Source: a bacterium (GTDB lineage: Bacteria; SZUA-182; DTGQ01). From it: a stretch of DNA of 16,009 bases. The stretch lies in NCBI GenBank assembly GCA_040752695.1, contig JBFMGO010000128.1:1-16009 (forward strand), given 5' to 3'. Under the pieces are notes generated by a model. The model was given only the letters and a program-made list of their open reading frames with translations, was not told where the DNA came from and ran no database searches. The position numbers were made by a program, and so were the translations under genes. Shown in pieces: positions 1 through 15,945 of this stretch (its first letter is position 1; each line of letters starts with the position of its first letter).

Positions 1-183
1 GCATTATTTTTCCTCCAATCGGTCGATATTAGGATATGCTTTATCCTTACCCGGGGTAAGAAGCTGTCTTATTGAGAAATCCGATACTCGTTACTCTTAA
101 TATTTTTAACAAACTGTAAGTATTTATTAAGGAAATGCTTTTTTATTCTTCATCATTTGAGGTTTAAGCCAAAGGGGGGCGGT

Positions 184-2850
184 ATGAGGCGCAGGACAGA
201 ACTTATTTGTATTTGCGTGCTGGCATTTCTCTGTATACTTACTCCACAGGCAAAAGGAGCACGATTAGAGGAAGGCTTAAGACCCATGTCTATGTCTGCC
301 TTCAGACAGGGTCTCGGCAATACTTCAATAACCGGTACCATCGGCTCTTTCAGGTCTGGCAGGTTTTTTTCCGGCTCCGGCACATCAGATGCTGCTTACG
401 AAAATATGGGGCAATATTTAATCGAGATTGATCCACTTACGCTCCAGATCAAGAGCCCGGATAGTATGTGGAAAATCGGTAATGGCAGAAACCTATACCC
501 TTCCGGCAATACAGCCTGGGAACTGAATGGCACCGGTATGGATACAGGTATCTCTTTTCTCCAAACCAATAGGAGGGCCCTGGGATCGCTCAGGACAGGT
601 GTTTATCATATCGACCTGGATACAGGAAGATTAACCAGGCAGTCTAATCTGAAATCCGGCTCCTACCGGGGATTTGCTCAAGATGGGAACAGTTACTATG
701 CTTCTGATGGCCAAACCATCTTTCTGCTCACCGGAGGGAGTATCGAGCTCCCTGAGGACATTGACAGCCTGGACTTGGTCCTGGGCAGTATATCGGACAG
801 CGGTAAATTCCTGCTGGCCGCCACCCAGAACTCCAGCGCCTGCAGTGTCTGGAAGATCCCTCTGGACTCAGGAGGCGACTTTGCAGGTACATACAGCCTG
901 GTCACAACGGTCAGCCATGACGAATCGAGCGTATCGACGAGCCCGGCCTGCTATGCAGGTATCTCCTATGCGCAAATTTCCTGGCCGGATGAAGGAGGCA
1001 GCCTGAAGGAGGTCCTTTACCTCAGCAGTGATTATTTCGATTCGGATGCCTCTGACGAAATAGCCATTATCGACTTCCAGACTGGCGCCATACTGAACCG
1101 CGTTCATTCTGCGGAGTCAGGGCTCTCTCTGAGTGAACCGGTCACCCTGACCAACGGCAGCATGACCGATTATCTGATTTGGGCCAATCCTCGGGGCATA
1201 CAGGGCGTTGACAGCCGTTTGTTCATCATCGGCGATTTTTGTTTTACCCTTTGTCAGCCCTCCGTAAATATCAAAAAGTATGTCTCCGTAGATGGTGGAA
1301 CAACGTATGTGGATGCTGACACCCCCTCTGGTCCTTACGCGCTGGTGGGAAGCGATCTTTATTTCAAACTGGTCGTGACCAATACCGGGCTATGGAAATT
1401 GGGCAATATCACTCTTCAAGACACCGATTTTAGCTTGAGTAGCTGTAGCATACCGGAATCACTGGCTTCCAAAGCTTCATTTACTTGCGTGATCGGGCCC
1501 ATTAAAGCCCTCGCCGGTCAGCAGACCGACACCAGCACAGTCACCGCCCAGACAAGATTCTCCGTGTTAACCGGTAAAGTTTTTTCTGATACCGACGACG
1601 CCAATTACTTCGGCGCTGATCCTGGCATTAAGATTGAGAAGACACCTGCAACCCAGACCATACTCAGCGGCGGCACTGCAACCTTCACTATCAAGGTGAC
1701 CAACATAGGTAATGTCACTTTGACGAATGTAACCTTAACTGACACACCACCGTTTTCCGGCTGTACTCCGCCGATTCCATCCCCGTTCACTCTGGCTCCT
1801 GGTACAAGCCAAACCTTCCAGTGCACGGTATCCAATGTGACTCAAAGCTTCACCAACGTCGCCACAGCCACCGGTACACCGCCAGCAGGCCCCAACGTGA
1901 GTGCAACAGCCACAGCCCAGGTGATTGTGAGCCAGCCAGGTATCAGTATTACGAAAACGCCCTCAACCCAGACCATAGTCAGCGGCGGCACCGCTACTTT
2001 CAACATCACGGTGACCAATACCGGTAATGTTCCCCTGACCAATGTGAATGTGACCGACGTGCAGGCACCTGGCTGTGCTCGTACCATTGGAACCCTGGCT
2101 GCCGGAGCGAGCTCTACCTATTCCTGCACGGTATCCGGTGTGACTCAAAGCTTCACCAACATCGCAACAGCCACCGGTACACCGCCAGCAGGCCTCAACG
2201 TGAGTGCAACAGCCACAGCCCAGGTGATTGTGAGCCAGCCGGGTATCAGTATTACGAAAACGCCTGCAACCCAGACCATAGTCAGCGGCGGCACCGCTAC
2301 TTTCAGCATCACGGTGACCAACACGGGCAATGTTCCCCTGACCAGTGTGGCAGTGGCCGATACTCTGGTCCCTGGCTGTGCTCAGACCATCGGAACCCTG
2401 GCTGTTGGAGCGAGCTCTACCTACACCTGTACGACGGCCGTTCTGACCGCAGGCTTCACCAACACCGCAACAGCCACCGGTACACCGCCGGTAGGCTCTA
2501 ACGTGAGCGCAACAGCCACGGCTGACGTGGTTGTAGAAGAACCAGCCCCGGGCATCAGTATTACGAAAGAGCCCCTAACCCAGACGGTGGCCAGTGGTGG
2601 CACGGCAACTTTTACCATCACGGTGACCAACACGGGCAATGTTCCCCTGACCAATGTGGGAGTGGCCGATACGTTCTCTCCCTGTGACAGGGTCATTGGA
2701 GACCTGGCTGTCGGAGGCGTTTCTACCTACCCCTGCACGGTATCCGACGTGACTCAAAGCTTCATCAACACAGCAATAGCCACCGGCACACCGCCAGCAG
2801 GCCCCCCTAACGTGAACGCTACAGCCACGGCTGACGTGGTTGTCCAATAG
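184..2850 (+). CDS. Secreted/surface protein, about 888 aa: signal peptide, putative beta-propeller-like N-terminal region, then about 5 Thr-rich Ig-like DUF11/DUF7507-type repeats
   Basis: ORF track 157..2850. Start moved to ATG 184, which is preceded by AAAGGGGGGCGGT and gives a signal peptide MRRRTELICICVLAFLCILTPQAKG. Repeated motif PGISITKTP..QTI.SGGTATF.ITVTNTGNVPLTNV.V.D...C...C....FTN.ATATGTP is typical of DUF11/DUF7507-like repeats. Confidence 0.85.
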   Translation: MRRRTELICICVLAFLCILTPQAKGARLEEGLRPMSMSAFRQGLGNTSITGTIGSFRSGRFFSGSGTSDAAYENMGQYLIEIDPLTLQIKSPDSMWKIGNGRNLYPSGNTAWELNGTGMDTGISFLQTNRRALGSLRTGVYHIDLDTGRLTRQSNLKSGSYRGFAQDGNSYYASDGQTIFLLTGGSIELPEDIDSLDLVLGSISDSGKFLLAATQNSSACSVWKIPLDSGGDFAGTYSLVTTVSHDESSVSTSPACYAGISYAQISWPDEGGSLKEVLYLSSDYFDSDASDEIAIIDFQTGAILNRVHSAESGLSLSEPVTLTNGSMTDYLIWANPRGIQGVDSRLFIIGDFCFTLCQPSVNIKKYVSVDGGTTYVDADTPSGPYALVGSDLYFKLVVTNTGLWKLGNITLQDTDFSLSSCSIPESLASKASFTCVIGPIKALAGQQTDTSTVTAQTRFSVLTGKVFSDTDDANYFGADPGIKIEKTPATQTILSGGTATFTIKVTNIGNVTLTNVTLTDTPPFSGCTPPIPSPFTLAPGTSQTFQCTVSNVTQSFTNVATATGTPPAGPNVSATATAQVIVSQPGISITKTPSTQTIVSGGTATFNITVTNTGNVPLTNVNVTDVQAPGCARTIGTLAAGASSTYSCTVSGVTQSFTNIATATGTPPAGLNVSATATAQVIVSQPGISITKTPATQTIVSGGTATFSITVTNTGNVPLTSVAVADTLVPGCAQTIGTLAVGASSTYTCTTAVLTAGFTNTATATGTPPVGSNVSATATADVVVEEPAPGISITKEPLTQTVASGGTATFTITVTNTGNVPLTNVGVADTFSPCDRVIGDLAVGGVSTYPCTVSDVTQSFINTAIATGTPPAGPPNVNATATADVVVQ
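1624..2847 (+). repeat. Four intragenic tandem repeat units of about 300-315 bp (about 100-105 aa), plus a divergent unit at about 1255-1620
   Basis: Unit starts GGCATTAAG/GGTATCAGT/GGTATCAGT/GGCATCAGT at 1624, 1939, 2242 and 2551 (spacings 315, 303, 309). About 200 nt from 1822 and from 2125 are nearly identical. Confidence 0.95.
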
Positions 2851-2895
2851 AAAATGCCCCTGACTCCTGACAACGTCAGTTGACAGCATTCATAG

Positions 2896-2930
2896 AGGGG
2901 GAGCAGATAAATTATCTGCTCCCCCTTTTT
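2896..2930 (+). terminator. Rho-independent terminator of the surface-protein gene
   Basis: Perfect inverted repeat AGGGGGAGCAGATAA-A-TTATCTGCTCCCCCT (2896-2926) followed by TTTT, 45 nt after the stop codon and between convergent genes. Confidence 0.9.
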
Positions 2931-2976
2931 ATATGAAAATCCCCCAAGCTCCTTTAGAAAATAGTGGGTGTTTCCT

Positions 2977-3951
2977 TTAAAACTCAGGGGTATAGTCCGC
3001 AGAATTTGAATCCAGATCCTGAAGGAAACCGTTCTCGAAGCCCAGCCCAAGGAAGTGCTCTTCCACCTCCTGATACTCGTCGGGATTGAGTCTGCGATCA
3101 AGGTCAGGTGTCTGGCAGGCCCGATAGACCGGATAGTATTGGGACATCAGGGAGACATAGGTTTGAGTACCCAGATTCCGGGCAATCCAGGTGAGAATTT
3201 TTTTGCTGTTTTCCACCTGCCCCGGCAAGATCAGGTGGCGGATGATCATCCCCTTGTGCATGATCCCCTCCCGGTCAAAGACAGGCACATCACCCACGAT
3301 TTTTTGCATGGCGGCTATCGCCCTTGCGGCATGCTGAAAATAATCGGGCAGCCGGGAGAATTTGACGGCCAGATCATTGTCGAAATATTTAAGGTCCGGC
3401 AGGAATACATCCACCAGGCCCGACAATCTCTCGATGACTGACGCTTTCTCGTAGCCATTGCTGTTCCAGACAATGGGGAGCACGCCGTTGGGAGCGGCAT
3501 CGGGGGAACTGACGGAAAGGTTGACGGGGAGGAGCCCGATGGAGCCGATCTCCTGCTTCAGACGGGGTAAAATCTTAAGGAGCCTGCCTGAGTAATGCGT
3601 GGGCGAGACCAGGTTCAGGTTGTGCACCCTGGTGGTTTCGATAAATTGCCTGCACGCGGTGATAAAGTCTGCATCCTGATAGATACTGCCCTGGTGGAGC
3701 TGTGAAATCCGGTAGTTCTGGCAAAAGAGGCATGAAGCATTGCAGTGGGAGAAAAAAACGGTCCCTGAGCCCCGTGTGCCGCTGATGCAAGGCTCCTCCC
3801 AGAAGTGGGCCATAATCCTGGCGATTTTAAATTCCGCCGGAGCCTTGCAGACCCCAAACCGGGCAATCCGGTCAGCCCGGCACTCGAACGGACAGCAATC
3901 ACATCCGGTCGCCGCGCCTTGGTGCTGTCGTGGTTTCATCATCTCGATCAT
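2977..3951 (-). CDS. PflX-like radical SAM protein (PFL-activating-enzyme-like, COG1313 type)
   Basis: N-terminal CxxCPxxC...C cluster, HFWEEPCISGTRGSGTVFF followed by CNASCLFC (CxxxCxxC) QNYRISQ, NLNLVSPTHY, VWNSNGYE, DVFLPDLKY, IIRHLILPG and SLMSQYYP. Start overlaps the upstream stop (ATGA, 3948-3951). Confidence 0.88.
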   Translation of the reverse strand: MIEMMKPRQHQGAATGCDCCPFECRADRIARFGVCKAPAEFKIARIMAHFWEEPCISGTRGSGTVFFSHCNASCLFCQNYRISQLHQGSIYQDADFITACRQFIETTRVHNLNLVSPTHYSGRLLKILPRLKQEIGSIGLLPVNLSVSSPDAAPNGVLPIVWNSNGYEKASVIERLSGLVDVFLPDLKYFDNDLAVKFSRLPDYFQHAARAIAAMQKIVGDVPVFDREGIMHKGMIIRHLILPGQVENSKKILTWIARNLGTQTYVSLMSQYYPVYRACQTPDLDRRLNPDEYQEVEEHFLGLGFENGFLQDLDSNSADYTPEF

Positions 3952-5138
3952 TCATCCGCCTTTTGCAAAACGAAAAATTTCAGGTATCTTCCTTCAGGGA
4001 AGCTTAAATTGTAGGGGTGGTCATGCGGCTGCATGGTGCTGGCCAGGACTTTCACCGTACAGCGGGCATTGACTGCCGATTGGTGGAGAATCTTGATGAA
4101 GGTCTCCGTATCGATATGAGCGGTGCAGGAAGAGGCTGCCAAAAGGCCATGAGGAGGAAGCTTTTCCAGGGCCTTGGAATTGATCGTGGTATAAGCCTTG
4201 ATGGCATTCTTGACCTGCTCTTTATTTTTGGCAAAGGATGGCGGATCAAGGATAATCAGGTCATATTCATCCTGGGGCATGTTTTTCAGAAATTCGAACA
4301 CATCCTCCGCTATGAATTGATGTTTCCTGGTATTGATCCGGTTGGCCTCGAAGTTTTTTCTGGCATACTCCGTGGCCTTGGCCGAGATATCCACGCTGTC
4401 CACCCGTTTGGCACCGACCAGGGCAGCATAGACCGAAAATGCGCCGGTATAGGCAAAACAGTTGAGCACCCGTCTGTTCCGGCAGAATCTGGCCAGGAGG
4501 GTTCTATTCTCCCTTTGATCGAGAAAGAAGCCGGTTTTCTGTCCTTCCCGGAAATTGACCCAGAATTGGATGCCGTTTTCACGGATGAGCACTTCTTCCC
4601 GGTTTTCGCCGAATAAGAGCTGTTTGGGCTGGGTTTTCAGCCCCTCCTTCTGGCGAACGCCGACATCGCTTCTTTCGTAGATGGTTCCAGGCTGAAATAC
4701 CTCTTTGAGTGCCTCCACAATGGCCTCTCTCAGTCTGTCTATCCCCATGGTATGGAGCTGAACCACCAGAACATCCGCATACTTATCGACGATCAGGCCG
4801 GGGAGGAGGTCACTTTCGCCAAAGACCACGCGGTAAGAATCAGTGTCCGGGGGCAGAAACTCTTCCTTGGTGTGCCGAAGGGCCATAATCCTTCGCTGGA
4901 AAAAGCCCTTATTAATCTCTTCATCCTTCCAGCTCAGAATTCTGACTCTGATTTCCGAGTTTTTGTTATAATACCCTGTAGCCAAGAAGCGGTCCTTTTC
5001 ATCGTAAATCCCGCAAACCGCTCCATTGGCGGCATCTTCGGACACTTTTTTCACTCCCCTGGAAAAAATCCAGGGGTGCCCGGCCTGAAGGTTTTTTACC
5101 CGTTCGTTTTTAATAATGATCCTGGGTTTCCCGTGCAT
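3948..5138 (-). CDS. rlmI: RlmI/RlmK-family class I SAM-dependent rRNA methyltransferase (PUA domain plus MTase; m5C1962-like)
   Basis: GHPWIFS (PUA-like N-terminus), GESDLLPGLIVDKY, GQKTGFFLDQRENR, VLNCFAYTGAFSV, DLIILDPPSF, ASSC, DHP and PEGRYLK are all family hallmarks. Confidence 0.88.
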   Translation of the reverse strand: MHGKPRIIIKNERVKNLQAGHPWIFSRGVKKVSEDAANGAVCGIYDEKDRFLATGYYNKNSEIRVRILSWKDEEINKGFFQRRIMALRHTKEEFLPPDTDSYRVVFGESDLLPGLIVDKYADVLVVQLHTMGIDRLREAIVEALKEVFQPGTIYERSDVGVRQKEGLKTQPKQLLFGENREEVLIRENGIQFWVNFREGQKTGFFLDQRENRTLLARFCRNRRVLNCFAYTGAFSVYAALVGAKRVDSVDISAKATEYARKNFEANRINTRKHQFIAEDVFEFLKNMPQDEYDLIILDPPSFAKNKEQVKNAIKAYTTINSKALEKLPPHGLLAASSCTAHIDTETFIKILHQSAVNARCTVKVLASTMQPHDHPYNLSFPEGRYLKFFVLQKADE

Positions 5139-5186
5139 GTACCTTACCTTAGCTGTCCTCGCTGAATGTCCCCGCTGCTTTTTGCC

Positions 5187-6746
5187 TTACTCGGAAAAGA
5201 CAATGGCCTGATATACCTCTACCGTGGTCTTTGGGTCCTTCCATGCATCCTTGTGCATCCCTGCTTTCTGGGAAAGGCTTTCCAGGAAGTCATCTTTATC
5301 CGGCAACTGTTCCCAGACCTGGGGGAGGTAGGTGGCCCGGTGCCATCCCTGGCTCAGGATCACGCCATCGATCTGCGGCCGCAACTTTCGCTTCAGATCC
5401 TCGACATTGGAGAAATGGAGCTGCCTGGGCAGGGTAAGGATGCTGATTTCTATCTTAATCTGATCCAGTTCCTTTTTGCTCAGCGGAGAGAACCTGGGGT
5501 CGCGGAAGGCTGCATTAAAGGCATTTTTTTGCACACAGTCACACAGCCGCTCTTCCGGGATAATCGTGCCGATGCAGCCTCGTAATTGTCCGTTCTTGTG
5601 CAGGGTGACAAAGCAACCCCGCTTTTCTTTAACATAGGATGAGAGGTTCTCCGGCAAAGGATCGTTCTCCTCGTCCATCAGGGTATTGGCGATCTTGGTC
5701 CTGGCAAGGCCAAGGAGCATTTTCTGATCCGCCTCGGTAACGGATTCGGAGTGAGATGCTCCGGCATCCTTATCAAGAGCGAAAGCCATATCCTTATCCG
5801 CTGCCTTCTTCACTTCATTCTCGTTATCACCGGCCTTTGCCTCAGCTTTCGATTCTTCCCCACCCGATCCCGATTCACTGACAAAGGCAATGCTGGCATA
5901 TCCGACCACCCGGTCGGAGGGGCCTTCGGTATCTCCCGAATTCCGGCAGTCGATCAGTTTCCCCTGCCACCCCTTTTGCCGGGCAATCTCCAAAAGGACC
6001 AGAATGGGGATTTTACCGCAGGCTTCGCATTCGGCCACTTTGCCAAAGTCCATGGCAGTGATGGCTTCGACGCAGGATTTGTCCAGGATTTGAGCCTCTT
6101 TATAGGGGTAGTAATGGGAAAGGTCGGAACTGGCCACCACCAGGGTATGCTCGTCGATGAAGGGCAAAAGTGCCCTGGCTATGGGCAGAGGGTCTGCCTG
6201 GCCGATGGTAATGGGAACCAGGTCGAAATTTTTCAGCATTACCTGCAGGAAAGGCAGTTGCACTTCCAGGGAATGTTCCTTTTGGTCCATGACCAAAAGA
6301 GGTGAGAAAAGTCTCTGCTTTCGCAAAGTGGCGGCAATGGGAGAAAGAGGAATATCGCCCAAAGGGGTGCGATAGCAGTCTACATCCATAATCGAGGCAC
6401 TGTCAGCGCCTATGTAGTGGCTGGGTGCAAGAACGATGACGGTTTTGGTGGCAGGATCGATCTTTTGGTAGCCTGTGGCTGCTATCGGTCCCGAATAGAT
6501 GTAGCCTGCATGCGGAGCGATCAGCCCCCGGACCCTCCCTGATACAGGATTTCCCTTGCCTTCTTTCAAAAACCGCTGGATCATCCTCTCCAGTTTGCCT
6601 TTTTCCTCAGGGTAGAATTGTCCTGCAACTACAGGAAGCCTTACTTTCTTTTTATCCTTCTGTCCAGACTCGTCTTTGGCCTGGCTGGAGGAAGTAGAAG
6701 AAATGAGCAAAAGAAAAATGAAGCACAGATAGATACTATTTTTCAT
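5187..6746 (-). CDS. amrB: AmmeMemoRadiSam protein B/A fusion (MEMO1-like dioxygenase-fold domain plus AMMECR1 domain) with N-terminal signal peptide, about 519 aa
   Basis: MEMO motifs VAGQFYP, APHAGYIYSG, PSH, EHSLEVQLPFLQ, SSDLSHY, ACG, NSGD and VVGYA. AMMECR1 motifs GCFVTL, LRGCIG, DPRF, ATYLPQV and KAG. Start moved to ATG 6746, which has an AAGGAGG ribosome-binding site upstream. Confidence 0.92.
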   Translation of the reverse strand: MKNSIYLCFIFLLLISSTSSSQAKDESGQKDKKKVRLPVVAGQFYPEEKGKLERMIQRFLKEGKGNPVSGRVRGLIAPHAGYIYSGPIAATGYQKIDPATKTVIVLAPSHYIGADSASIMDVDCYRTPLGDIPLSPIAATLRKQRLFSPLLVMDQKEHSLEVQLPFLQVMLKNFDLVPITIGQADPLPIARALLPFIDEHTLVVASSDLSHYYPYKEAQILDKSCVEAITAMDFGKVAECEACGKIPILVLLEIARQKGWQGKLIDCRNSGDTEGPSDRVVGYASIAFVSESGSGGEESKAEAKAGDNENEVKKAADKDMAFALDKDAGASHSESVTEADQKMLLGLARTKIANTLMDEENDPLPENLSSYVKEKRGCFVTLHKNGQLRGCIGTIIPEERLCDCVQKNAFNAAFRDPRFSPLSKKELDQIKIEISILTLPRQLHFSNVEDLKRKLRPQIDGVILSQGWHRATYLPQVWEQLPDKDDFLESLSQKAGMHKDAWKDPKTTVEVYQAIVFSE

Positions 6747-6796
6747 AATCCTGCACCTCCTTGTGTTGTTCCCTTTCTCGGAAAATGAGAATATAT

Positions 6797-8008
6797 TCAA
6801 TCCCACCGGCCGCTTACGGCCTGTTTACAGAATTTGCACTTTCCCTTTTCCAGGTTAAGAGACAAAAGGGTATACCCCTTTCGTTTAACCACCACCTTCT
6901 TGCAGCCGGGGCAGATAACCTCGTCCCCCATACCCGGTACATTGCCGACATAGACATGGTGCAGACCTTCCTTTATTCCTGTTTCCTGCGCCTTTTGTAA
7001 AATTTCCACCGGTGTAGGCGGCAGCCGGGTGAGCTTGTATAAAGGGAAAAACCGGGGAAAATGCAACGGACAGTCAGGCCCCAGATTCTTGGCCAGCCAG
7101 CCGCACATTCTCTTGATCATCTCCATATCGTCCGTATAGGTAGGGATAACCAGGTTGATGATTTCCAGCCAGACACCTTTGCTGTGGAGGTTTTTAAGGG
7201 TATCGAGCACCGGATCGAGGTGACCGCCGTTCAGCTTGAAGTAGATATCATCGGAGAAACTCTTCAGATTGATGCTGGCAGCATCGATTACCGTACAGAG
7301 ACGGTCCAGTGCCTTCGGGGTGATGTATCCGTTGCTGACGTAAATATTTTTCAGTCCCGCGCTCCGTGCCTGTGTTGCGCTATCGACCATATATTCATAG
7401 AAAGTGGTGGCTTCCGAGTACGTGTAGGCCAGGCTGCGGCAGTCATATTTTTGGGCCAGCCTGACTACCTGATCAGGAGGCAGGTCCTGATTGCGGGTCT
7501 TATCCGGCGTGGTCTGGGAAATCTCCCAATTCTGGCAATTCAGGCAGTGAAAGTTGCATCCGGCAACAGCCAGGGAAAAGGCAGTGGTACCAGGGTAAAA
7601 GTGCAAGAGAGGCTTTTTTTCAACCGGGTCCGCATTGATGGTGCAGGGGTTGCCGTAGGAAATGGAGTACAGGGTCCCGGACAGGTTGACTTTGGTCCCG
7701 CATTTTCCCCTGCGGTCCGGTTTGATGAGACAGTGATTGGGGCAGGTCTGGCATTGGACTTCTTTCGATTTCAGCTTTTTATAAAAGTAAGCCTCCCGAA
7801 GGTGCGGATCTGAAGGGTCAAACGCGGCATCGGCCAGGGCCAGACTGAAAGGGGAAAGGGCCAGCCACGCCCCGCCGCAGGTCATACAGAGGCCGCGTTT
7901 CAGAAATTCCCGCCTGGTAGCGGTCCCAGGAGCAGCCCGGGACTGGTCCTTGACTTGAGTCCTTTGCTTCAAAGCCCGATTCGTATGTTGATTCGTATGT
8001 TGGTTCAT
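6797..8008 (-). CDS. amrS: AmmeMemoRadiSam system radical SAM enzyme with twin-arginine signal peptide, about 403 aa
   Basis: CQTCPNHC...GKC, DPVEKKPLLHFYPG, GCNFHCLNCQNWEISQ (CxxxCxxC), AYTYSE, VSNGYI, RFFPLYKL, YVGNVPG and C-terminal CPGC...CKFC. The real start is ATG 8008, overlapping the upstream TGA (ATGA) with GAGGAAGG upstream, not the ORF-track start at 8656. Confidence 0.92.
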   Translation of the reverse strand: MNQHTNQHTNRALKQRTQVKDQSRAAPGTATRREFLKRGLCMTCGGAWLALSPFSLALADAAFDPSDPHLREAYFYKKLKSKEVQCQTCPNHCLIKPDRRGKCGTKVNLSGTLYSISYGNPCTINADPVEKKPLLHFYPGTTAFSLAVAGCNFHCLNCQNWEISQTTPDKTRNQDLPPDQVVRLAQKYDCRSLAYTYSEATTFYEYMVDSATQARSAGLKNIYVSNGYITPKALDRLCTVIDAASINLKSFSDDIYFKLNGGHLDPVLDTLKNLHSKGVWLEIINLVIPTYTDDMEMIKRMCGWLAKNLGPDCPLHFPRFFPLYKLTRLPPTPVEILQKAQETGIKEGLHHVYVGNVPGMGDEVICPGCKKVVVKRKGYTLLSLNLEKGKCKFCKQAVSGRWD

Positions 8009-10272
8009 CGTGCCTTCCTCATCCGGGTAACAACCGCCAGACTGGCTGATTTGACCAGAGCTGCTGAAAGGAGCACACCCGAAATGCCGAATTGGGGGAG
8101 CAAAAATAAACTGGTCAGCAGGGTCCCGCAGGACGCGCCAGCCAGATCGGCCAGATAAAGCCCTCCCGTGATCCTGCCCGCCTGCCCGGCAAACTGGTGG
8201 GAGATGGCAACAAACTGCCAGCCCACAGCCAGGCCGGAGCCAAAGATGAGAAAAGGAATAATTCCGCACTGAATTATGGACAGGAAGGCTTCTGCATGAA
8301 ACCTTCTGCTGAAAACAGCAAGCCCCAAAACGAGGCAGGCCAGAAGGATGAGCATAACATCCTGAAAACCGGTTTGTCTGAGCGGGTCTTGTCTCCACTT
8401 TCGGGCAGCCAGGGCACCTGCTCCTAATCCTATCATAAAGAGCGTAACAAATAAAGAGATCCATAAGTAAACATAGCCAAAAATGATCTGGAAAAGGAGA
8501 AGCAGGGACAATTCCAGACACATTCCTGCATAACCGGAGGAGAACGTAACCAGAAGCAGGCTGTCTTGCCTGCAGGCTAAAAAGGCAAAAAGAGCGGCCA
8601 GTACGATCACCACGGCCAGTACCATCCAGCCCATACCCCCCGATTTTTTCAGCCACAGGTTCAAAAGATGCCGAAAAGCGAGGGGTGAAAGATCGGTATT
8701 GGGCAAAGCATCCTTTTCAGCCACCAGGCTCCCGATACGATCCATCCGAAAGGAATCTGTCATCTCGGACAACTGGTAGTCGGTAAGCCAGCGGGTCCTG
8801 ATGTCGAGCTCCGCCAGTTTTTTCCTTATTTCAAGACCTGGATTGTGCTCCTTGCCCAAAAGTGGCTTTCGGCTGGCAAGGAAATAGTGAGTTTCACCTG
8901 GGAAAAGAATGACATGGGGAAATACCTGGGTCAGTGCCGCATAAACGGACCGGTTTAAGCCCAGCCCCTCGGACTCGAGGTAGTTATCCGCACCGGTCAG
9001 GGTAAAAAATAATACCCCTTGAGGATTGAGGATATCGCGGGCTTCCTGGAAAAACTCCCGCGTATAGAAGCGATTGAGCTGGATGTTTTCCGGATCAGGG
9101 AGGTTGAGAATAAGACAATCGTAGTGAATGCGCTTTTGCCGCGCTTTTTTCATAAAGAGTCTGCCGTCACCCACATGGGTATGAACACAAGGGGCGTCCA
9201 GAGCCGTGCAGATCTTCTTTCCTAGGGACAGGATGGCAGGATCCAGCTCTACATAGTCGATCCAGTTCGGCTTATGCCTGAGGATTTCCGAAAGGGTGCC
9301 GAACACTCCGCCACTGATCAGGAGCACTCTGGCTCCGGCACCAACCTGCACCAAAGGGATATGACCAAGGGCCTCGGCCCGGTAATCACCGGTGGAAAAA
9401 AGGGGAATGCCGTCCGAGAGGACGTTTATCTGCTTGCCGCTGCGGGTTATGGCCAACTGGGCAAAGGGGGTATTCTTATGGAAGAGGATCTTCTGCCCAG
9501 GCGTCCGAAAGGTGAGGGTTGCCATATTGAGCGGGGCACTGAAGCAGATGAAAAGAGCTAATAGGACCGGCACCGGCCATAAGCATGGCGAGGAAAGCAG
9601 CACCGCCACCATGAGGTGAACCGAGCCAAGAGCTATCAGCACTCCCCAATGGGAGAAAAGGTATACGAAAAGGAAGCTGAACAAAACCCCTCCCAGAACC
9701 TCACCCCATAAATCAATGATGTATACGGTGGAGGGGGTATCCCGGCATAAGCTGTCGTGGAACGGGTTGTCCCTGAATGAGCTGTTGCAGGCTGCGCTGT
9801 CATGAAACAGCGCAGTGTGACCCTTATTGTGGCCGCCATTGTAGCGGTCTGGGGACAAAAGACTGGCTGCTGCGGGAATCATGGCTCCTGAGATGAGACC
9901 GTAGGGAAACAGGATCAGACTGCTGCCGATTAGTGCCGAGCCGATTCCCGGTAATTCACCTCTGATCCACAAAAGCGGCAGCACTCTGAAACCCGCAAGC
10001 TGCAGGAAGGGAATGACAGCCAGGAGCAGATGGCCGCAGAACAGCAGGCGACCGGCTTTTTCCCTCCCGACCAAGAAGACTCCCAAGGATGCACCGGAAG
10101 CCGTGGACAAAAGCCAGATGCCCAGAATAAGGCCGATTATCAGTTCGTTGCCGCCGAAAGTGGTAATACCCTCTCTGATGAGAATTACTTGAGTCACTAC
10201 GCAGGAGAACCCAACCGCGGCCAGAGATGTAATGATCTTGGGGGTTTTGGGTACGGGCATGGTATTGTTCAC
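8005..10272 (-). CDS. Polytopic membrane protein with a central spermidine-synthase-like (class I SAM-binding) domain (fused MFS-like/spermidine synthase type)
   Basis: Multiple hydrophobic segments at both termini (QVILIRE...GNELIIGLILGIWL...GASLG; LELSLLLLFQIIFGYVY; LYLADLAGASCG). Central VLLISGG, YVELDP, GDGRLF, YDCLILNLPDP, NRFYTREFF and LNPQGV. Start is GTG 10272 or ATG 10260. Confidence 0.85.
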   Translation of the reverse strand: MNNTMPVPKTPKIITSLAAVGFSCVVTQVILIREGITTFGGNELIIGLILGIWLLSTASGASLGVFLVGREKAGRLLFCGHLLLAVIPFLQLAGFRVLPLLWIRGELPGIGSALIGSSLILFPYGLISGAMIPAAASLLSPDRYNGGHNKGHTALFHDSAACNSSFRDNPFHDSLCRDTPSTVYIIDLWGEVLGGVLFSFLFVYLFSHWGVLIALGSVHLMVAVLLSSPCLWPVPVLLALFICFSAPLNMATLTFRTPGQKILFHKNTPFAQLAITRSGKQINVLSDGIPLFSTGDYRAEALGHIPLVQVGAGARVLLISGGVFGTLSEILRHKPNWIDYVELDPAILSLGKKICTALDAPCVHTHVGDGRLFMKKARQKRIHYDCLILNLPDPENIQLNRFYTREFFQEARDILNPQGVLFFTLTGADNYLESEGLGLNRSVYAALTQVFPHVILFPGETHYFLASRKPLLGKEHNPGLEIRKKLAELDIRTRWLTDYQLSEMTDSFRMDRIGSLVAEKDALPNTDLSPLAFRHLLNLWLKKSGGMGWMVLAVVIVLAALFAFLACRQDSLLLVTFSSGYAGMCLELSLLLLFQIIFGYVYLWISLFVTLFMIGLGAGALAARKWRQDPLRQTGFQDVMLILLACLVLGLAVFSRRFHAEAFLSIIQCGIIPFLIFGSGLAVGWQFVAISHQFAGQAGRITGGLYLADLAGASCGTLLTSLFLLPQFGISGVLLSAALVKSASLAVVTRMRKAR

Positions 10273-10368
10273 CTGCTGATGGTTATTGTGCGTTAGAGCT
10301 GCTTGTAACGTAAGGATATGGCCGGATTTTAACCTTCCCTGAGCGAAAATACAAGGCCTTTCAAGGTA

Positions 10369-10407
10369 GGGATCTATTATTTATTGGGATCTATTATTTA
10401 TTGGGAT
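10369..10407. repeat. 17-bp direct tandem duplication overlapping the stop of the DUF2723 gene
   Basis: GGGATCTATTATTTATT at 10369-10385 and 10386-10402, then GGGAT. Confidence 0.9.
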
Positions 10408-11942
10408 GGTAAAACCTGATAAAGAATTCCCTGCCTTTTAATCCGAAATTTCTTTAAAATCCATTCGGGGCTGTAATCCGGATGATCGGAAGTCAAGTAG
10501 AGCTTGTGCCCCTTCATGATGTAGAGGATATTTACGGAAGTCACCTCGATGCAGGCTGGAAAATCTCCCTGGACGCTTGGCAGGCCAGCAATGAACAGCT
10601 CCTTGCCGATAGCTTCGACATTTTGAAAATAAAGCAGAGTATTGATAATAGTATAATCCGGGAAAATTACCGAGCCTTCCTCCGCCTGCTCAAATACGTG
10701 CAGTGCGTACTTTCGTGCCCCGTAATAATTTCTTTTCGAGGGATTTAAGAAATACTGATAAGAATTCCGGTAAGGTATCTCGCGCTTCACTCCTATATTT
10801 ACTTTATACTTTTCTAAAAGAGCAGGTATTTTCTGAAAAATAAAAACAGGAGAGATGGCAGAAAGAAACAGCATAACCAGGATGCTTCGGCTCCATCCCT
10901 TATTACTCATGCGGCTTACCCTGTCAATGCCAAGGCCGGTGAGCATGGCCACGAAAATATACACGGGGAGGTAAAATACATACTGGTCCGCTACGGTATA
11001 GCGAAAAGCAAAGATAAAATAAATCAGAAATATCCCGGTAAAGAGAAGACGATAGTGCCAATTTCGTTCTTTCCAGAAATTCCCTGCTCCTGGAACTACA
11101 AAAAAGATGTGAAAAACCGGAAAATTTATTCCCAAAAACAGGATGAGATTTTTAAAATTCCTCCAGCAAAAGATGTGAGTATTGAAAACGTCATTCTTCC
11201 AGGCATTACTCCCGATGAGAGCCGATTTTAAGGTTAAAAAAAAGCTCCGGGTTTGAAAATATTCTCGGGCTATCAAAACCTCGTAGGGCAAAGCTCCCAG
11301 AACGGTCAAAGAGCACAGGATGAGGAAATCCCGGCCAGTGATTTTCCTGCCGCGTAACAGGATGGCAGAGTATGAAAAGTAAACAATCATGCTTAATAGG
11401 GCCATCAGGTGGTTACTGAGGTTAAGACCATTGACCCAGAATAACCAAAACAGATATTTTTTTTGCCCGGTCTTCAAAAATCGGGTCAAAAGGATCATTT
11501 CCGCCAGAAATAAAAAGGTATACAGTGTGTAAACCTCAGCAATGACTGAATTGGTCCAAAAGGTATGGCTGACCATCAGGGTCAGACAGGCCAGGATGGC
11601 ACCTGGCCAGTTGACTTCCCACAAACGGAGCAAAAGAAAAAGGCTGCCGATCGTCAAGGCTCCGAATATCGCGGAAATAAGATTGGCAGTATAGGCCGGA
11701 TTATGGAAAGGAAGAAGGCTGAAGAGCCTCCCTATCAGGATATACAGAGGATGGCTGAGGGCTAATCCCAGAGCCCCGACATAGTCGCTCAAATAAATTC
11801 GCAGTTGAAATATCGGGCTGTCATTCCACAGTGCATCGGGAGCTAATGTGTATACATAAAACGCTAAGGAGACGAAAGTAATAAAAAAAGAGCTCTTCCA
11901 ATAGGTTTTCTTGTCAACGGTTACACCCGTACTGGGACTCAA
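10398..11942 (-). CDS. DUF2723/TMEM260-like multi-pass membrane glycosyltransferase (GT-C fold, putative protein O-glycosyltransferase)
   Basis: Y..TLAP...W.DS, HPLYILIGRLF, N.ISA..GALT, FW..S..AEVYTL and GL.LSNH motifs match the DUF2723/TMEM260 N-terminus. Many TM segments. TTG start with AAGGAGG upstream. Confidence 0.8.
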   Translation of the reverse strand: MSPSTGVTVDKKTYWKSSFFITFVSLAFYVYTLAPDALWNDSPIFQLRIYLSDYVGALGLALSHPLYILIGRLFSLLPFHNPAYTANLISAIFGALTIGSLFLLLRLWEVNWPGAILACLTLMVSHTFWTNSVIAEVYTLYTFLFLAEMILLTRFLKTGQKKYLFWLFWVNGLNLSNHLMALLSMIVYFSYSAILLRGRKITGRDFLILCSLTVLGALPYEVLIAREYFQTRSFFLTLKSALIGSNAWKNDVFNTHIFCWRNFKNLILFLGINFPVFHIFFVVPGAGNFWKERNWHYRLLFTGIFLIYFIFAFRYTVADQYVFYLPVYIFVAMLTGLGIDRVSRMSNKGWSRSILVMLFLSAISPVFIFQKIPALLEKYKVNIGVKREIPYRNSYQYFLNPSKRNYYGARKYALHVFEQAEEGSVIFPDYTIINTLLYFQNVEAIGKELFIAGLPSVQGDFPACIEVTSVNILYIMKGHKLYLTSDHPDYSPEWILKKFRIKRQGILYQVLPSQ

Positions 11943-12035
11943 CCTCTTTAAACCCTCCTTGAAAAACAGCGCAGTTTTCCCAGAGTTTTCTATCCACGGC
12001 CTCTATATAACAGCAGATTGGTAATATAGATGGAT

Positions 12036-12065
12036 ACTATAAGTTTACTGGAACTGTCGATGCAA
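12036..12065 (-). promoter_or_regulatory. Possible sigma-70-type promoter for the DUF2723 gene and downstream genes
   Basis: Minus strand TTGCAT-N18-TATAGT with an AT-rich tract upstream, about 95 nt before the start codon. Motif match only. Confidence 0.35.
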
Positions 12066-12209
12066 AACAAATTTTTTTGTTGTGGGTGAATGAAATGCTT
12101 TTCTTGGCCTCATCCGTTTTGGTGACAATATAACTATGAGGACAATGTAAGGAGATTGGATGAAAAAATGAGGAATAACGGTTGAAGGACAATTTTATTG
12201 GAAGAGGGG

Positions 12210-12255
12210 AAAAATGATCGGGTGGGTGATTTGGGGTTATTCAAACCACCCACCC
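12210..12255 (-). terminator. Terminator-like hairpin ending the micropeptide transcript
   Basis: Minus strand GGGTGGGTGGTTTG-AATAACCC-CAAATCACCCACCC forms a 14-bp stem. The single non-Watson-Crick pair is G-U only on the minus-strand RNA. It is followed by GATCATTTTT. Confidence 0.7.
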
Positions 12256-12314
12256 AGACTACGTGAGATGATTGCTCCATTGTTTTTCCCCGTCTTTTTG
12301 AGGGTATGGTTTTC

Positions 12315-12386
12315 CTATTTAATGCCTTTGCGGGCTGACATAAGAAAGTAAAACAACGTTCCGAAAGCTCCGAAAAAGATACCCAT
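12315..12386 (-). CDS. Unannotated 23-aa hydrophobic micropeptide MGIFFGAFGTLFYFLMSARKGIK
   Basis: Extended Shine-Dalgarno AAAGGAGGTGA 5 nt before ATG, consensus sigma-54 promoter upstream and hairpin downstream. Below the ORF-track size cut-off. Confidence 0.7.
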   Translation of the reverse strand: MGIFFGAFGTLFYFLMSARKGIK

Positions 12387-12441
12387 GAAATTCACCTCCT
12401 TTACTGATAAAATTGATTAGTGACTTCAGGTATTATAAGAA

Positions 12442-12457
12442 TGCAACTGGTGTGCCA
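12442..12457 (-). promoter_or_regulatory. Sigma-54 (-24/-12) promoter
   Basis: Minus strand TGGCAC-ACCAG-TTGCA matches the consensus TGGCAC-N5-TTGCW with exact spacing. Predicted TSS is near 12431. Confidence 0.85.
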
Positions 12458-12486
12458 ATCTTTAAGATTTTAAAAGAGGCAATATT

Positions 12487-12499
12487 TTTCAAATGGTTA
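12487..12499. promoter_or_regulatory. Putative IHF binding site between the sigma-54 promoter and enhancer region
   Basis: TTTCAAATGGTTA versus WATCAANNNNTTR (one mismatch), with an adjacent AT-rich tract, at the position expected for sigma-54 promoters. Confidence 0.45.
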
Positions 12500-12733
12500 A
12501 CAATAGTAATTCCTCATGTGCTCTCTGAACGGGTCCTTTGTTTTTTGCGTTTTTGCAAGAATGATGAGATTGTTTATTGCAATATCGCCATTCTTTGTCA
12601 TTTTGCAACACCAATGAGCAAAATTGTCAGGTGCCAATCTCATCACGGGGTACGGAAACACAGAAATCGGTGTTGACACTAAAATTAAAGTCAGTAGAAG
12701 GGATTATGCACGGTGAAAGTCATTGATTCTGGG

Positions 12734-13600
12734 CTACGATGCTTTTTGAAGAAGATTCGTTTTATCTTTCTTTGAAAGAAGATTCGCCTTATCTTTCTTT
12801 GAAAGAAGTTCAAAGGTAAACATCCAGGCCATTAATCTAATCAATGGTACTTTTGTCAAGATTGAATCTAAGATATTTAAAAATGGTAACATGCCTGGGA
12901 TAAAGGCTCCAGCGATACTTGTAATGTGCCAATATCTTATTTCACCTAAATCAAAAAAATGTTTGGCAAAATGTACATCCTTTAAGCTTAAAATGTGATC
13001 TTTTTCCCATTCTGTTCTGGCGGAGGGTGTTAATATGCGGTACAGCTTCAGGATGAAGTTATAGTTCAGGGCTTCTATCGCAAGAATTCTTCCCCCGGGC
13101 GCAAGTATTCGTCTGAGTTCAGAGAGGGCATATGATAAATCCAGATGATGCAGCATACCTGAGCATATAACAGTATCTATACAATCATCCGGCAGATTCG
13201 TATCTTCAGCGTCACCTTGAAGGAAGACTAAATTAGTCAGCCCGAGCTTTTTGGCTTTTTCCTGAGCCCTTTGTATGGTATTGCGGCTTATGTCGATTCC
13301 AATGGCAATTCTGGCTCCTGCTTGAGCAGCTCTTATCGCGTTTCCTCCTTCTCCACACGCATAGTCCAGGAATACTTTATCTTTACTATGTTCAGCAATC
13401 CAATCCTCCATATATTCTGTTGATTTATTTATTGTTTCATAGAATTTGCCTTTCTCCCCCCATATGGCTGCCTGTTTTTCTGAGCTCCAATCGAAGAACT
13501 CAGATTCCTTCCGTTTTCTGTCCTCGAGGTTATTCATCCACTCTTCAGTGGGAATCTTGCTCAGTTTTTTCAATTGTGCCATCAATTCATTTGTATTCAT
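12734..13600 (-). CDS. Class I SAM-dependent methyltransferase (Methyltransf_11/UbiE-like)
   Basis: FLDYACGEG, IGIDIS, GDAEDTNLPDDCIDTVICSGMLHHL and LRRILAPGG. Start ATG 13600 preferred because AAGGAG lies upstream; it overlaps the GT4 3' end. Confidence 0.88.
   Translation of the reverse strand: MNTNELMAQLKKLSKIPTEEWMNNLEDRKRKESEFFDWSSEKQAAIWGEKGKFYETINKSTEYMEDWIAEHSKDKVFLDYACGEGGNAIRAAQAGARIAIGIDISRNTIQRAQEKAKKLGLTNLVFLQGDAEDTNLPDDCIDTVICSGMLHHLDLSYALSELRRILAPGGRILAIEALNYNFILKLYRILTPSARTEWEKDHILSLKDVHFAKHFFDLGEIRYWHITSIAGAFIPGMLPFLNILDSILTKVPLIRLMAWMFTFELLSKKDKANLLSKKDKTNLLQKAS
12749..12808. repeat. 27-bp in-frame tandem duplication at the methyltransferase C-terminus (LLSKKDKAN/LLSKKDKTN)
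   Basis: AAGAAGATTCGTTTTATCTTTCTTTGA followed by AAGAAGATTCGCCTTATCTTTCTTTGA, then AAGAAG. Confidence 0.9.
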
Positions 13601-14864
13601 AGGTCTTTTCTCCTTCATGATCATCTTTCTTCCGGCCCATGTGAAGGTAGATATGAAGTAATTCCCTGCTCAAAGCTTCAGGAGAGTAGTGAGAGTCATA
13701 ATATCCTCTGGCCGCCTTTCCCATTTCCTTTATTGTCTCTCGATGCTCCACGAGGGAACGGATTTTTTCTTCCAGCGCCAGCGAGTCTTTTGGCCGGACG
13801 ACAAAGCCGGTTTTCCCATCCTCAATCAGTTCGGGGATACCCCCCACTCTGGTCCCGATGACAGGTCTTGAATGAAAATAGGCTATAGAGATGACACCGG
13901 TCTGGGAAGCTCCCGTATAAGGGAGGACAACAACATCCGAGGCGGTAAAGATCGTGCTCACCTCAGCATTACTGATATAGCGGTTGATCAGAACGAGGTT
14001 ATCCCTGATGGAGGAACAGTCGCAATAGATCTGTCCCTCCCCTGCCAGAATAAGCTGTACCTCGCTGCCGGATCTGAGCAGCCGGTCCGCTGCCTGAATC
14101 AGATACTCCACTCCTTTGTATGACCGGATACGGCCGAAAAAGAGGATCTTGACAGTATTCCTTTTCAGGCCATCCAACTCCGGCGGCCAGCAGGGAGGAG
14201 TCCCTGCGGGAGTTTTATGGTCTGTAAAATCCTCCACGACATTCGACACCATATGGGTTGAGAAAATTCGTGACTGAGGGATATTAAACGTGGCGCTCGC
14301 CTCAGGGATATGAGACCGTGCATTGACATGGAAATAAGGGATACGTTTTAAGCATGTCTTTCTAATAAGATGATAAATCCTGTTATTGATCCTCTTCAAA
14401 GGTGGAATATTCGCTTCATGATGCGGTGAAGGGTCATGGATAGTCAGGATCTTGGCCTTAATATCCGGATTGAAGAAAGCCGCTGTCAGGACCTCGATAA
14501 CACTGCCTGTCGTATAGTGAACGATATCAGGATTTATCTTTTTGATGAGACGGGCACAGCGAAAGTGATACAAGGGATTGTATACATAGAAGAGTAATCT
14601 GCGAATCTTTTTGCCAAGATCGGTCTCATATTCCGTGAAGAGCACCTTGACCCTGCCGGAGGTAAAAAGCGATGCCTGGTACATTTTTTCCGTCTCCGGA
14701 GACCTGAGGGTAATAAAATAAATATCCAGGTCCAGAGAGGCCAGTTCCAGTGCCCTGAGTAACGCATAGGGTATTTGGGCTAAACCACCCCAGGCCTCCA
14801 TTCCCAGGAGGCAGATTCTCTTTCGATTGTTGCCAAAGGCTCCTGATTCTTTCTGCATAGGCAT
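13587..14864 (-). CDS. Glycosyltransferase family 4 (GT-B fold)
   Basis: GG...Y near the N-terminus, PDIVH, TIHD, ILFFGRIRSYKGVEYLIQA, SDVVVLPYTGASQTGV, PVIGTRVGGIPELIEDGKTGFVV. Confidence 0.92.
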   Translation of the reverse strand: MPMQKESGAFGNNRKRICLLGMEAWGGLAQIPYALLRALELASLDLDIYFITLRSPETEKMYQASLFTSGRVKVLFTEYETDLGKKIRRLLFYVYNPLYHFRCARLIKKINPDIVHYTTGSVIEVLTAAFFNPDIKAKILTIHDPSPHHEANIPPLKRINNRIYHLIRKTCLKRIPYFHVNARSHIPEASATFNIPQSRIFSTHMVSNVVEDFTDHKTPAGTPPCWPPELDGLKRNTVKILFFGRIRSYKGVEYLIQAADRLLRSGSEVQLILAGEGQIYCDCSSIRDNLVLINRYISNAEVSTIFTASDVVVLPYTGASQTGVISIAYFHSRPVIGTRVGGIPELIEDGKTGFVVRPKDSLALEEKIRSLVEHRETIKEMGKAARGYYDSHYSPEALSRELLHIYLHMGRKKDDHEGEKTYEYK

Positions 14865-14968
14865 CTGATTTTCTGTATACTTCCTGCATAGACATCGATT
14901 TTTCGGCAGTCATCTGAGCTTGACCACCGCATCCGCAATTGCTGTCGTATCCTGAACCTCTGCGTCAG

Positions 14969-15898
14969 TCACTCATTTTCCAGCATCAGGGCAAAGCTCA
15001 GGGACCGGGTGATTGGAAGCCAGGACACTTCCTCGATCCAATAAATAGTCACTCGCATATCCTTGATGACGGATATAATCCTTTTAACCAGTTCTTCAGG
15101 AGAGTAAATCCGTCCAAATCTATTCAGAAACCCGAATCTTCTGCAAATCGTGGCCTCATGGTCAAACCCGACCTGATCGAGGGAAAACATCGACGGATCG
15201 GTCAGGTTAGTAAAATCCCTGCTCAGATAGAGGGGAACGATGAAACACCTCCCGCCTGGCTTGAGCAGCCTCTGCGCTTCCATGATAAAGAGTGTATCAT
15301 TCTCCTTTTCAAAGTGCTCGAAAGTACAATGGAGAGTCATTTTATCAATTGATTTATCAGGCAAAGGAATATGAGCCGCATTGCATCCGATTTGATCTTG
15401 ATAGAAGCCCGGCCTGTAGGTCAGGTCCTGACAGTAGACTTTTCTCACCTGCTCCCTGATAAGATCGGGAAAGGGAGAGAGCCAACTCCCTACGTCAATA
15501 TAAGTATCAGTCTCTTTGAAACCGATGAGTTTGAGAGTTAAAAAATATTCCACTATTTTTTTATAACATGGGTCATGCCGGATGCCGTCTTGTCCCATGA
15601 ATTCTTCATATCTTTTCAAAAACTCATCGAACTCGTTCCGCTCAATGACGACAGAGGGACATTTTGTACCGGTTAAACTCTCCATACGTTCCCTGACAGC
15701 CATCTGTTCTGACTTGTTGTGACAGGTAAATCCCAGTTTTTGTGGCTCCCAGGGGTAGGTTTTCCAAAGATGGTACCAGTGCCTTTTCCCTAATGACCCT
15801 GCTTTATTGATTACTTTTTTGGTAAACCAGACTGCATAAGGATAGTGCCCTTCGGGTGCAAAAATTCTTTGAGAGATAAACTTGCCATCAGCTTTCAC
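14969..15898 (-). CDS. Class I SAM-dependent methyltransferase-domain protein, probably glycan-associated
   Basis: YIDVGS motif I, IPLPDKSIDKMTLHCTFEHF, RLLKPGGRCFIVP. GTG start with AGAGGAG upstream. Confidence 0.8.
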   Translation of the reverse strand: MKADGKFISQRIFAPEGHYPYAVWFTKKVINKAGSLGKRHWYHLWKTYPWEPQKLGFTCHNKSEQMAVRERMESLTGTKCPSVVIERNEFDEFLKRYEEFMGQDGIRHDPCYKKIVEYFLTLKLIGFKETDTYIDVGSWLSPFPDLIREQVRKVYCQDLTYRPGFYQDQIGCNAAHIPLPDKSIDKMTLHCTFEHFEKENDTLFIMEAQRLLKPGGRCFIVPLYLSRDFTNLTDPSMFSLDQVGFDHEATICRRFGFLNRFGRIYSPEELVKRIISVIKDMRVTIYWIEEVSWLPITRSLSFALMLENE

Positions 15899-15945
15899 GA
15901 AAAAAACTCCTCTTGGCCTTAGTACACATTGCGATCGTCACCTGC

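Follow-up and report, generated by a model that had tools for sequence, protein, structure and literature searches.

An AmmeMemoRadiSam cassette with export leaders and its companion membrane protein, a candidate supplier of S-adenosylmethionine

INTRODUCTION

The AmmeMemoRadiSam system consists of AMMECR1 (AmrA), Memo (AmrB), and the radical S-adenosylmethionine (SAM) enzyme AmrS; to our knowledge, its function has long been unsolved. We analyzed a stretch of bacterial DNA of 16,009 nucleotides (GenBank assembly GCA_040752695.1, contig JBFMGO010000128.1, positions 1 to 16,009; referred to here as the window), which has on its minus strand three neighboring genes, encoding in order a membrane protein, AmrS, and an AmrB-AmrA fusion (AmrBA). 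Both soluble proteins have export-type leaders. As far as we know, radical SAM enzymes are regarded as cytoplasmic, since both SAM and strong reductants are found in that compartment. The locus raises the question of whether an AmmeMemoRadiSam system may work outside the cytoplasm and, if so, how it would obtain SAM. We conclude that the exported cassette is a real, conserved variant of the known system. We also propose, with our confidence evenly divided for and against, that the membrane protein is a SAM exporter of the major facilitator superfamily (MFS) type whose outer SAM domain docks on and feeds AmrS, so that radical chemistry would take place outside the cytoplasm with AmrBA.

RESULTS

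AmrS and AmrBA carry conserved export leaders

All three components belong to the AmmeMemoRadiSam families. AmrS scored 339 bits on TIGR04337 (cutoff, 220), and the AmrB and AmrA parts of the fusion scored 238 bits on TIGR04336 (cutoff, 26) and 210 bits on TIGR04335 (cutoff, 99), respectively. Besides the radical SAM motif CxxxCxxC, AmrS has N- and C-terminal four-Cys motifs, and the cysteines are invariant in 72 alignment rows. The window fusion has intact Memo His/Asp/Cys motifs and an intact AMMECR1 motif RGCIG, and these motifs hardly vary among 27 leader-bearing fusions. A reading made from the sequence alone (the sequence-only reading) had claimed that amrS overlaps by ATGA with the gene for a polytopic membrane protein with a SAM-binding fold. 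The plus strand at positions 8001 to 8012 reads TGGTTCATCGTG and contains this overlap, and the membrane protein has the PF01564 domain and 14 predicted transmembrane (TM) helices. The amrB-amrA gene starts 50 bp downstream of amrS, with an AGGAGG site upstream of its start at position 6746. Coordinates are collected in Table 1.

The AmrS leader has the features of a substrate of twin-arginine translocation (Tat): an S/T-RR-x-FLK motif (T31-RREFLK), an uncharged stretch as hydrophobic region, and an AxA site, A-L-A before D60, which is the likely cleavage site. It scored 17.4 bits on TIGR01409 (cutoff, 16.7) and passed a scripted TatFind-like rule; the background for this twin-arginine (RR) rule is 40 of 2,751 long open reading frames (ORFs) of the genome (1.5%). 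The AmrBA leader is of the general secretion (Sec) type and was identified by hydropathy and by its conservation in homologues. Both leaders had been claimed by the sequence-only reading, and their conservation in orthologs, which it had set as a test, held up. Among the 120 best AmrS homologues, 116 had an intact N-terminal Cys motif; 82 of these passed the RR rule, and 94 passed when either RR or KR was accepted. Most of the remaining 22 were RK variants, failed the rule narrowly, or came from truncated gene calls. Near these loci, we counted 33 distinct AmrB or AmrBA proteins; 31 had a signal-like hydrophobic leader above threshold, 9 of them with a lipobox-like Cys. Of the 30 best-scoring AmrBA fusions in a 131-genome sample, 21 came from genomes that have the membrane gene, and 19 of these had a leader; none of the 9 from genomes that lack it had one. 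A Tat-leader AmrS is also present in a cultured, nonpathogenic sulfate reducer, Desulfatibacillum alkenivorans (P0091).

The source genome (96.6% complete) has a TatC gene and a single AMMECR1, that of the window fusion; no leaderless Memo or AMMECR1 was shown in it. Its second AmrS is leaderless. Two residues mark the exported-type subfamily: P168 is present in 89 of 90 leader-bearing versus 0 of 40 leaderless AmrS sequences, and W304 is present in 90 of 90 versus 6 of 40.

Three minor features of these proteins were seen in the source genome. The leaderless AmrS gene (G000:C28:51886-54918) lies upstream of genes that, by their motifs, presumably encode archease and RtcB. A second Memo/AmrB (G000:C76:8969-10093, minus strand) is a stand-alone protein with a hydrophobic N terminus and a long, repetitive linker rich in Ala and Gln. 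The start of amrS contains a short tandem duplication, with NQHT occurring twice (window positions 7975 to 8005, minus strand).

Exported-type AmrS and the membrane gene are found largely in the same genomes

We collected 54 loci that encode the membrane protein. amrS was present in 27 of them, and all three amr domains were present in 18. For the 27 loci without amrS, 26 genomes were searched and 25 had an AmrS elsewhere; 30 AmrS matches from these genomes were inspected by eye, and a leader was seen in about 21 genomes. We then surveyed two phylum samples, one around a Syntrophales record (G040) and one around a Planctomycetaceae record (G044), and excluded the center genomes from the counts. 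The search profiles were A1 for the membrane protein and A2 for leader-bearing AmrS, with thresholds placed at score gaps. In the first sample (n = 130), 45 genomes had both, 2 had exported-type AmrS only, 5 had the membrane gene only, and 78 had neither. The corresponding numbers in the second sample (n = 80) were 21, 0, 4, and 55. The leader itself was seen in 39 of 48 exported-type genomes of the first sample (7 were assigned by profile coverage alone, and 2 sequences were short or cut) and in 18 of 22 of the second.

The exceptions are partly accounted for. In three of the five membrane-only genomes of the first sample, the membrane gene is directly upstream of a Tat-leader gene of a second radical SAM family, which we take to be PflX-like and to which the window gene at positions 2977 to 3951 is related; the other two genomes are G063 and G160. 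All 12 genomes that carry this Tat-leader paralogue also have the membrane gene. In two of the four second-sample exceptions, amrS adjoins the membrane gene, one having been missed by the search and one being cut by a contig end. We concluded that exported-type AmrS and the membrane gene co-occur almost one-to-one in the two phylum samples. Together with the AmrBA counts above, they support the association of the membrane gene with leader-bearing amr genes that the sequence-only reading had put forward. Tat-leader PflX-like genes directly after the membrane gene or beside a Tat-leader AmrS gene were seen in loci L202, L203, L204, L168-L179, L191, L230, and L250.

The same reading had proposed to test whether these genes co-occur as one clade; the co-occurrence was supported, and a single clade was not. 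In a FastTree phylogeny of 139 AmrS catalytic cores, the split between leader-bearing and leaderless proteins required 1 change, with weak deep support, compared to about 40 changes in shuffles. A 34-row tree required 2 changes. A more careful 42-row tree required 1, with support values of 45/16 and the split present in 46% of bootstrap trees. The labels of 18 rows were corrected by eye, and L024 was left out. The two AmrS paralogues of the source genome fall on opposite sides of the split. Exported AmrS as one clade was thus rejected as a conclusion, since the dividing branch is weakly supported.

The membrane protein is a predicted MFS carrier with an inserted SAM-binding fold

The AlphaFold2 model of the membrane protein had a mean predicted local distance difference test (pLDDT) value of 92 and a predicted template-modeling (TM-score) value of 0.91. 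In this model, seven helices precede and seven follow the Rossmann domain (residues ~250 to 540), so that the helices form the 6 + 6 arrangement of MFS proteins plus two extra helices. We compared the model with 48,161 solved chains (VIA-align). The membrane part matched a complete MFS fold, with two six-helix bundles (VMAT2, Z of 27.2, root mean square deviation [rmsd] of 3.6, 341 residues aligned; SotB, Z of 26.7; NorA, Z of 26.2), and most of the top 50 matches were MFS carriers. The insert has the spermidine-synthase fold (1uir, Z of 24.3, rmsd of 2.6, 271 residues aligned; SpeE, Foldseek E value of 3e-11). Foldseek with the whole model matched the SpeE domain only, and matches in the ESM Atlas were only to PF01564 clusters named "hypothetical" or aminopropyltransferase. 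The model also contains a low-confidence insertion at residues ~137 to 172 (window positions ~9745 to 9850, minus strand) with repeated FHDS-like words, by which the protein exceeds its close homologues in length.

Residues were counted in a 101-row alignment. The pattern FYTREFF was used to find loci; its columns are therefore conserved partly by construction and were not taken as evidence. The positive-inside rule favored an internal N terminus in 101 of 101 rows. With an odd number of helices before the insert, this would place the SAM-fold domain outside. Passages of PMC3725402 assign D103 and D173 of spermidine synthase the roles of selecting decarboxylated SAM (dcSAM) and of catalysis, and describe a plant spermidine synthase in which D103I abolished aminopropyl transfer and allowed the use of SAM, with V106T helping. 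Aligned by motif, V319 and T322 of the window protein occupy the places of D103 and V106. Just 2 of 101 rows have the dcSAM-selecting Asp of the glycine-rich loop (V319 in the window), and 58 have the catalytic Asp (N386 in the window). The adenosyl-binding residues are kept (E338 in 98 of 101 rows, D365 in 100). Since these are retained and the dcSAM-selecting Asp is lost, the outer domain probably binds SAM, and we rejected aminopropyltransferase activity because the dcSAM-site and catalytic aspartates are both missing. Polar residues in the TM helices are nearly invariant (Q24, R29, E30, and Q591 in 99 to 101 of 101 rows; D705 in 97), as would be expected of a working transport site, whatever its solute.

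A predicted complex supports docking of AmrS on the outer domain

The sequence-only reading had asked for a structure-predicted complex. We used mature AmrS (residues 60 to 403) and the outer domain (residues 248 to 545) as input. The pair scored 0.86, and the best of three controls scored 0.00. At least 94% of contacts were shared between runs, and partner pLDDT was at least 88. Of 157 solved complexes, 116 attained the score mark, as did 2 of 215 mismatched pairs; these rates apply only roughly to our own alignments. The prediction supports binding of AmrS to the outer domain of the membrane protein. In the model, loop 424-429 of the membrane protein contacts AmrS residues 122-123, 147, 160-163, 171-172, and 197, beside CxxxCxxC, and Y427 makes the best-defined contacts there. 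The loop is moderately conserved: N426 is present in 84 of 101 rows and Y427 in 69; among the 44 distant rows, only 12 have Y427.

The solved fold closest to AmrS is that of pyruvate formate-lyase (PFL) activase (Foldseek E value of 2e-14; TM-score by target of ~0.8), including its peptide complex, 3cb8. The docking region of AmrS is, we assume, where PFL activase binds peptide. AmrS scored 49 bits on the glycyl-radical activase profile TIGR02493, below the cutoff of 232, and a glycyl-radical enzyme partner was not recurrent among the neighbors of the anchor loci.

A proposed pathway for radical SAM chemistry outside the cytoplasm

The proposed pathway begins with AmrS, which would fold and acquire its Fe-S cluster while still cytoplasmic and then leave by Tat, as the observed leader suggests. 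AmrBA would leave by Sec; in relatives, it may often be a lipoprotein. The MFS core would move SAM outward into the spermidine-synthase-fold domain, and this domain, to judge from its residue changes, would bind SAM rather than dcSAM and would have lost aminopropyl transfer. The outer domain would then dock on AmrS beside CxxxCxxC and hand over SAM. An exported redox partner would reduce the cluster, as features of relatives suggest. Finally, and this is the step that we hold most loosely, the 5'-deoxyadenosyl radical may act on an envelope substrate presented by Memo-AMMECR1. Because of the location and the open, PFL-activase-like barrel, an exported protein or a membrane lipid seems a more likely substrate than RNA or a glycan.

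No electron-supply gene is encoded in the window. Candidates occur near exported amrS elsewhere. In 15 of 156 anchor loci, some of which overlap, exported amrS has a DUF362 gene next to it, in several cases one with a Tat-like leader, and a gene for an FMN-binding/4Fe-4S membrane protein precedes amrS in three genomes (L197, L123, and L251). A CxxCH insert, which may be a heme c-like motif, distinguishes a strongly supported AmrS subgroup of 20 rows; 16 of these rows have a His farther along. The insert is located between the first strand of AmrS and its N-terminal Cys motif and was seen in loci L007, L014-L016, L030, L035, L039, L043, L044, L050, L052, L127, L128, L187, and L195.

More broadly, and somewhat less confidently than the pathway itself, we suggest that many anaerobes carry out periplasmic radical SAM chemistry in which a dedicated MFS-type SAM exporter, through an outer domain that holds SAM, docks with and reloads at least two Tat-exported radical SAM families, with exported Fe-S, flavin, or heme c modules providing electrons. 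If this is true, radical SAM chemistry would gain a compartment through an exported enzyme that has a SAM source of its own, the likely effect being that chemistry normally confined to the cytoplasm could run in the periplasm of anaerobic bacteria. It would also name a candidate bacterial SAM exporter. The cassette gives a handle on the function of Memo, AMMECR1, and AmrS.

Evidence against the proposed pathway, and alternative explanations

Several findings weigh against SAM delivery by the membrane protein to an exported AmrS. The membrane gene adjoins amrS in only 27 of the 54 loci, and in five inspected genomes (L093-L095, L199, and L200) it is near a leaderless amrS. The co-occurrence counts include related genomes, which are not independent, so that Fisher P values calculated from them are overstated, and the thresholds were fixed after the score gaps had been seen; a real AmrS was missed in G183, so the genome search has false negatives. 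The TIGR01409 score of AmrS is barely above the cutoff, about 10 AmrS proteins have a Sec-like or anchor leader instead of a Tat leader, and several exported-type AmrS proteins are short and leaderless. Such proteins are hard to reconcile with export of a folded Fe-S enzyme. Conservation at the predicted AmrS interface differs little, with 0.66 in leader-bearing and 0.60 in leaderless proteins, and the predicted pose may partly echo the PFL activase-peptide structure, since PFL activase is the closest fold. The MFS fold tells neither the direction of transport nor the solute. The short exported-type AmrS proteins that lack the leader and first strand are in loci L057, L058, L060, L139, L147, and L252-L254; upstream of short leaderless AmrS genes, no clear twin-arginine ORF that could be a detached Tat piece was found in 5 loci, and an anchor-like ORF was found in L197.

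The alternative that survives best, which we consider unlikely, is that the outer domain is an active SAM-dependent methyltransferase in its own right, which would receive SAM from the MFS core of the protein and share a periplasmic pathway with AmrS. In the passages of PMC3725402 cited above, D103I and V106T turn spermidine synthase into a methyltransferase, and V319 and T322 are the counterparts of these changes in the window protein; an Asp at position 386 is kept in more than half of the rows. However, residue 386 is Asn in the window, most distant rows have Ala, Gly, Asn, or Ser there, and few of them share T322; the membrane gene also tracks two radical SAM families.

It seems to us rather improbable that the membrane protein retrieves inhibitory products (5'-deoxyadenosine, methionine, methylthioadenosine, and S-adenosylhomocysteine) from docked AmrS into the cell, with SAM arriving in another way, e.g., bound to AmrS during Tat export. 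Such a role would fit the retention of adenosyl-binding residues and the loss of side-chain-binding ones, and both importers and exporters are among the matches to the MFS fold. Yet a supply of SAM for multiple turnovers would be left unexplained, and no second transporter recurs among the neighbors.

We think it very unlikely that the membrane protein is the substrate of AmrS, activated or modified at loop 424-429 in the way that PFL activase acts on pyruvate formate-lyase. The fold of AmrS and the position of Y427 beside the cluster motif are what this explanation would predict. However, Tyr at 427 is far from invariant (see above), and G423 is Gly in only 12 of 44 distant rows. The loop has no invariant target residue, which favors docking over a substrate role.

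Little credence can be given to the idea that the target of the exported system is a glycan or glycoprotein synthesized by the products of three genes upstream on the same strand, which encode a GT-C-like glycosyltransferase (PF11028), a GT4 glycosyltransferase, and a methyltransferase. These genes are present as the sequence-only reading had described them, and a GT4 orthologue is nearby in one same-genus genome. The glycan link that the reading had raised was rejected on synteny, however, because the genes are not conserved neighbors: the fetched loci contained no GT-C homologue, although in 41 of 54 the sequence extended more than 2 kb beyond the membrane gene on its upstream side, and no glycosyltransferase family was strongly recurrent, one GT-C/TPR family being found in 4 of 156 anchor loci. 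Equally improbable is a cytoplasmic system, like canonical AmmeMemoRadiSam, whose leaders merely anchor the enzymes at the inner membrane face: some relatives have anchor-like or no leaders, and SAM and low-potential reductant are, as general knowledge has it, cytoplasmic, but the Tat consensus and AxA sites of AmrS, the lipobox-like Cys of AmrBA proteins, the outward topology predicted for the partner domain, the CxxCH insert in one AmrS subgroup, and the separate leaderless AmrS paralogue in the same genome all argue against it. SAM delivery by the membrane protein remains our preferred explanation.

Relation to known systems

The cassette resembles AmmeMemoRadiSam in that all three components score above cutoff, are adjacent, and have intact catalytic-type motifs. 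It differs in its Tat and Sec leaders, the coupled protein that joins an MFS core to a SAM domain, and the subfamily residues P168 and W304; the leaderless AmrS of the genome is located elsewhere, apart from the cassette. RNA base modification has been proposed for AMMECR1, in passages of PMC4075521 that mention neither signal peptides nor spermidine. For the window copy, the export leaders speak against modification of RNA or bases in the cytoplasm; rRNA and tRNA would be improbable targets of a copy outside the cytoplasm. Burroughs et al. 2019 is reportedly the main treatment of the contexts in which Memo, AMMECR1, and radical SAM proteins occur. We found no description of an exported AmmeMemoRadiSam form in the literature searched; Burroughs et al. 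2019 was outside the search and may cover the variant. A passage of PMC7159879 points to the same study.

Like the membrane-fused spermidine synthases (NF037959 and NF002956 PRK03612), the membrane protein combines a TM region with the spermidine-synthase fold. Unlike them, it has the domain inserted between the MFS halves, has lost the aminopropyltransferase aspartates, and scores below both cutoffs (28.6 versus 40 bits and 104 versus 472 bits, respectively); a clear score gap also separates it from other such proteins. AmrS shares its closest solved fold with the glycyl-radical activase PFL-AE, from which it is distinguished by its extra four-Cys motifs, its export leader, and the lack of a recurrent glycyl-radical enzyme neighbor among the anchor loci. 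In 10.1101/2021.07.06.451061, plant MFS proteins, the GoSAMTs, are proposed to be Golgi SAM importers; like the membrane protein considered here, they would deliver SAM to a noncytoplasmic compartment. The enzymes supplied by GoSAMTs are methyltransferases, not a radical enzyme, and the likeness is one of analogy only.

Neighboring genes

TABLE 1 Features of the cassette and of the genes that follow it
Feature	Positions	Strand	Remarks
Membrane gene	8005..10260	-	751 aa; ATG start at 10260, in-frame GTG at 10272
amrS, AmmeMemoRadiSam radical SAM enzyme	6797..8008	-	403 aa; TIGR04337, 339 bits
amrB-amrA fusion	5187..6746	-	519 aa; Memo 38-286, AMMECR1 347-517
ATGA stop-start overlap, membrane gene/amrS	8005..8008	-	TGA of membrane gene, ATG of amrS
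SAM/adenosyl-binding Rossmann domain, residues ~250-540	8641..9513	-	PF01564; predicted outer face
Docking loop, A424-D-N-Y-L-E429	8974..8991	-	Predicted beside AmrS cluster motif
AmrS Tat-type leader, residues 1-59	7832..8008	-	TRREFLK at 7898-7918
CxxxCxxC radical SAM motif, C151/C155/C158	7535..7558	-	Invariant in leader-bearing AmrS alignment
AmrBA Sec-type leader, residues 1-23	6678..6746	-	K-hydrophobic-SQA; hydropathy and homologue conservation
RlmI-like methyltransferase gene	3948..5138	-	Follows cassette
PflX-like radical SAM gene, leaderless	2977..3951	-	Follows RlmI-like gene

The two genes that follow the cassette are probably lineage-level neighbors and not part of its core. In same-family genomes, the PflX-like gene (presumably the right family name) follows the cassette in 4 of 4 assessable cases, and the RlmI-like gene follows it in 3. 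The PflX-like family is leaderless in the window and has a Tat leader in another phylum. Across the upstream glycosylation and methyltransferase genes (window positions 11000 to 13000), the GC content is 36 to 44%, compared to ~52% in the cassette, which is consistent with a separate origin of these genes. Promoter and terminator scans gave results at chance level, and the cassette had no listed RNA holder. On the plus strand of the window (157..2850), a gene encodes an 897-amino-acid protein with a signal-like N terminus and four DUF7507/DUF11 repeats, which is probably a surface protein.

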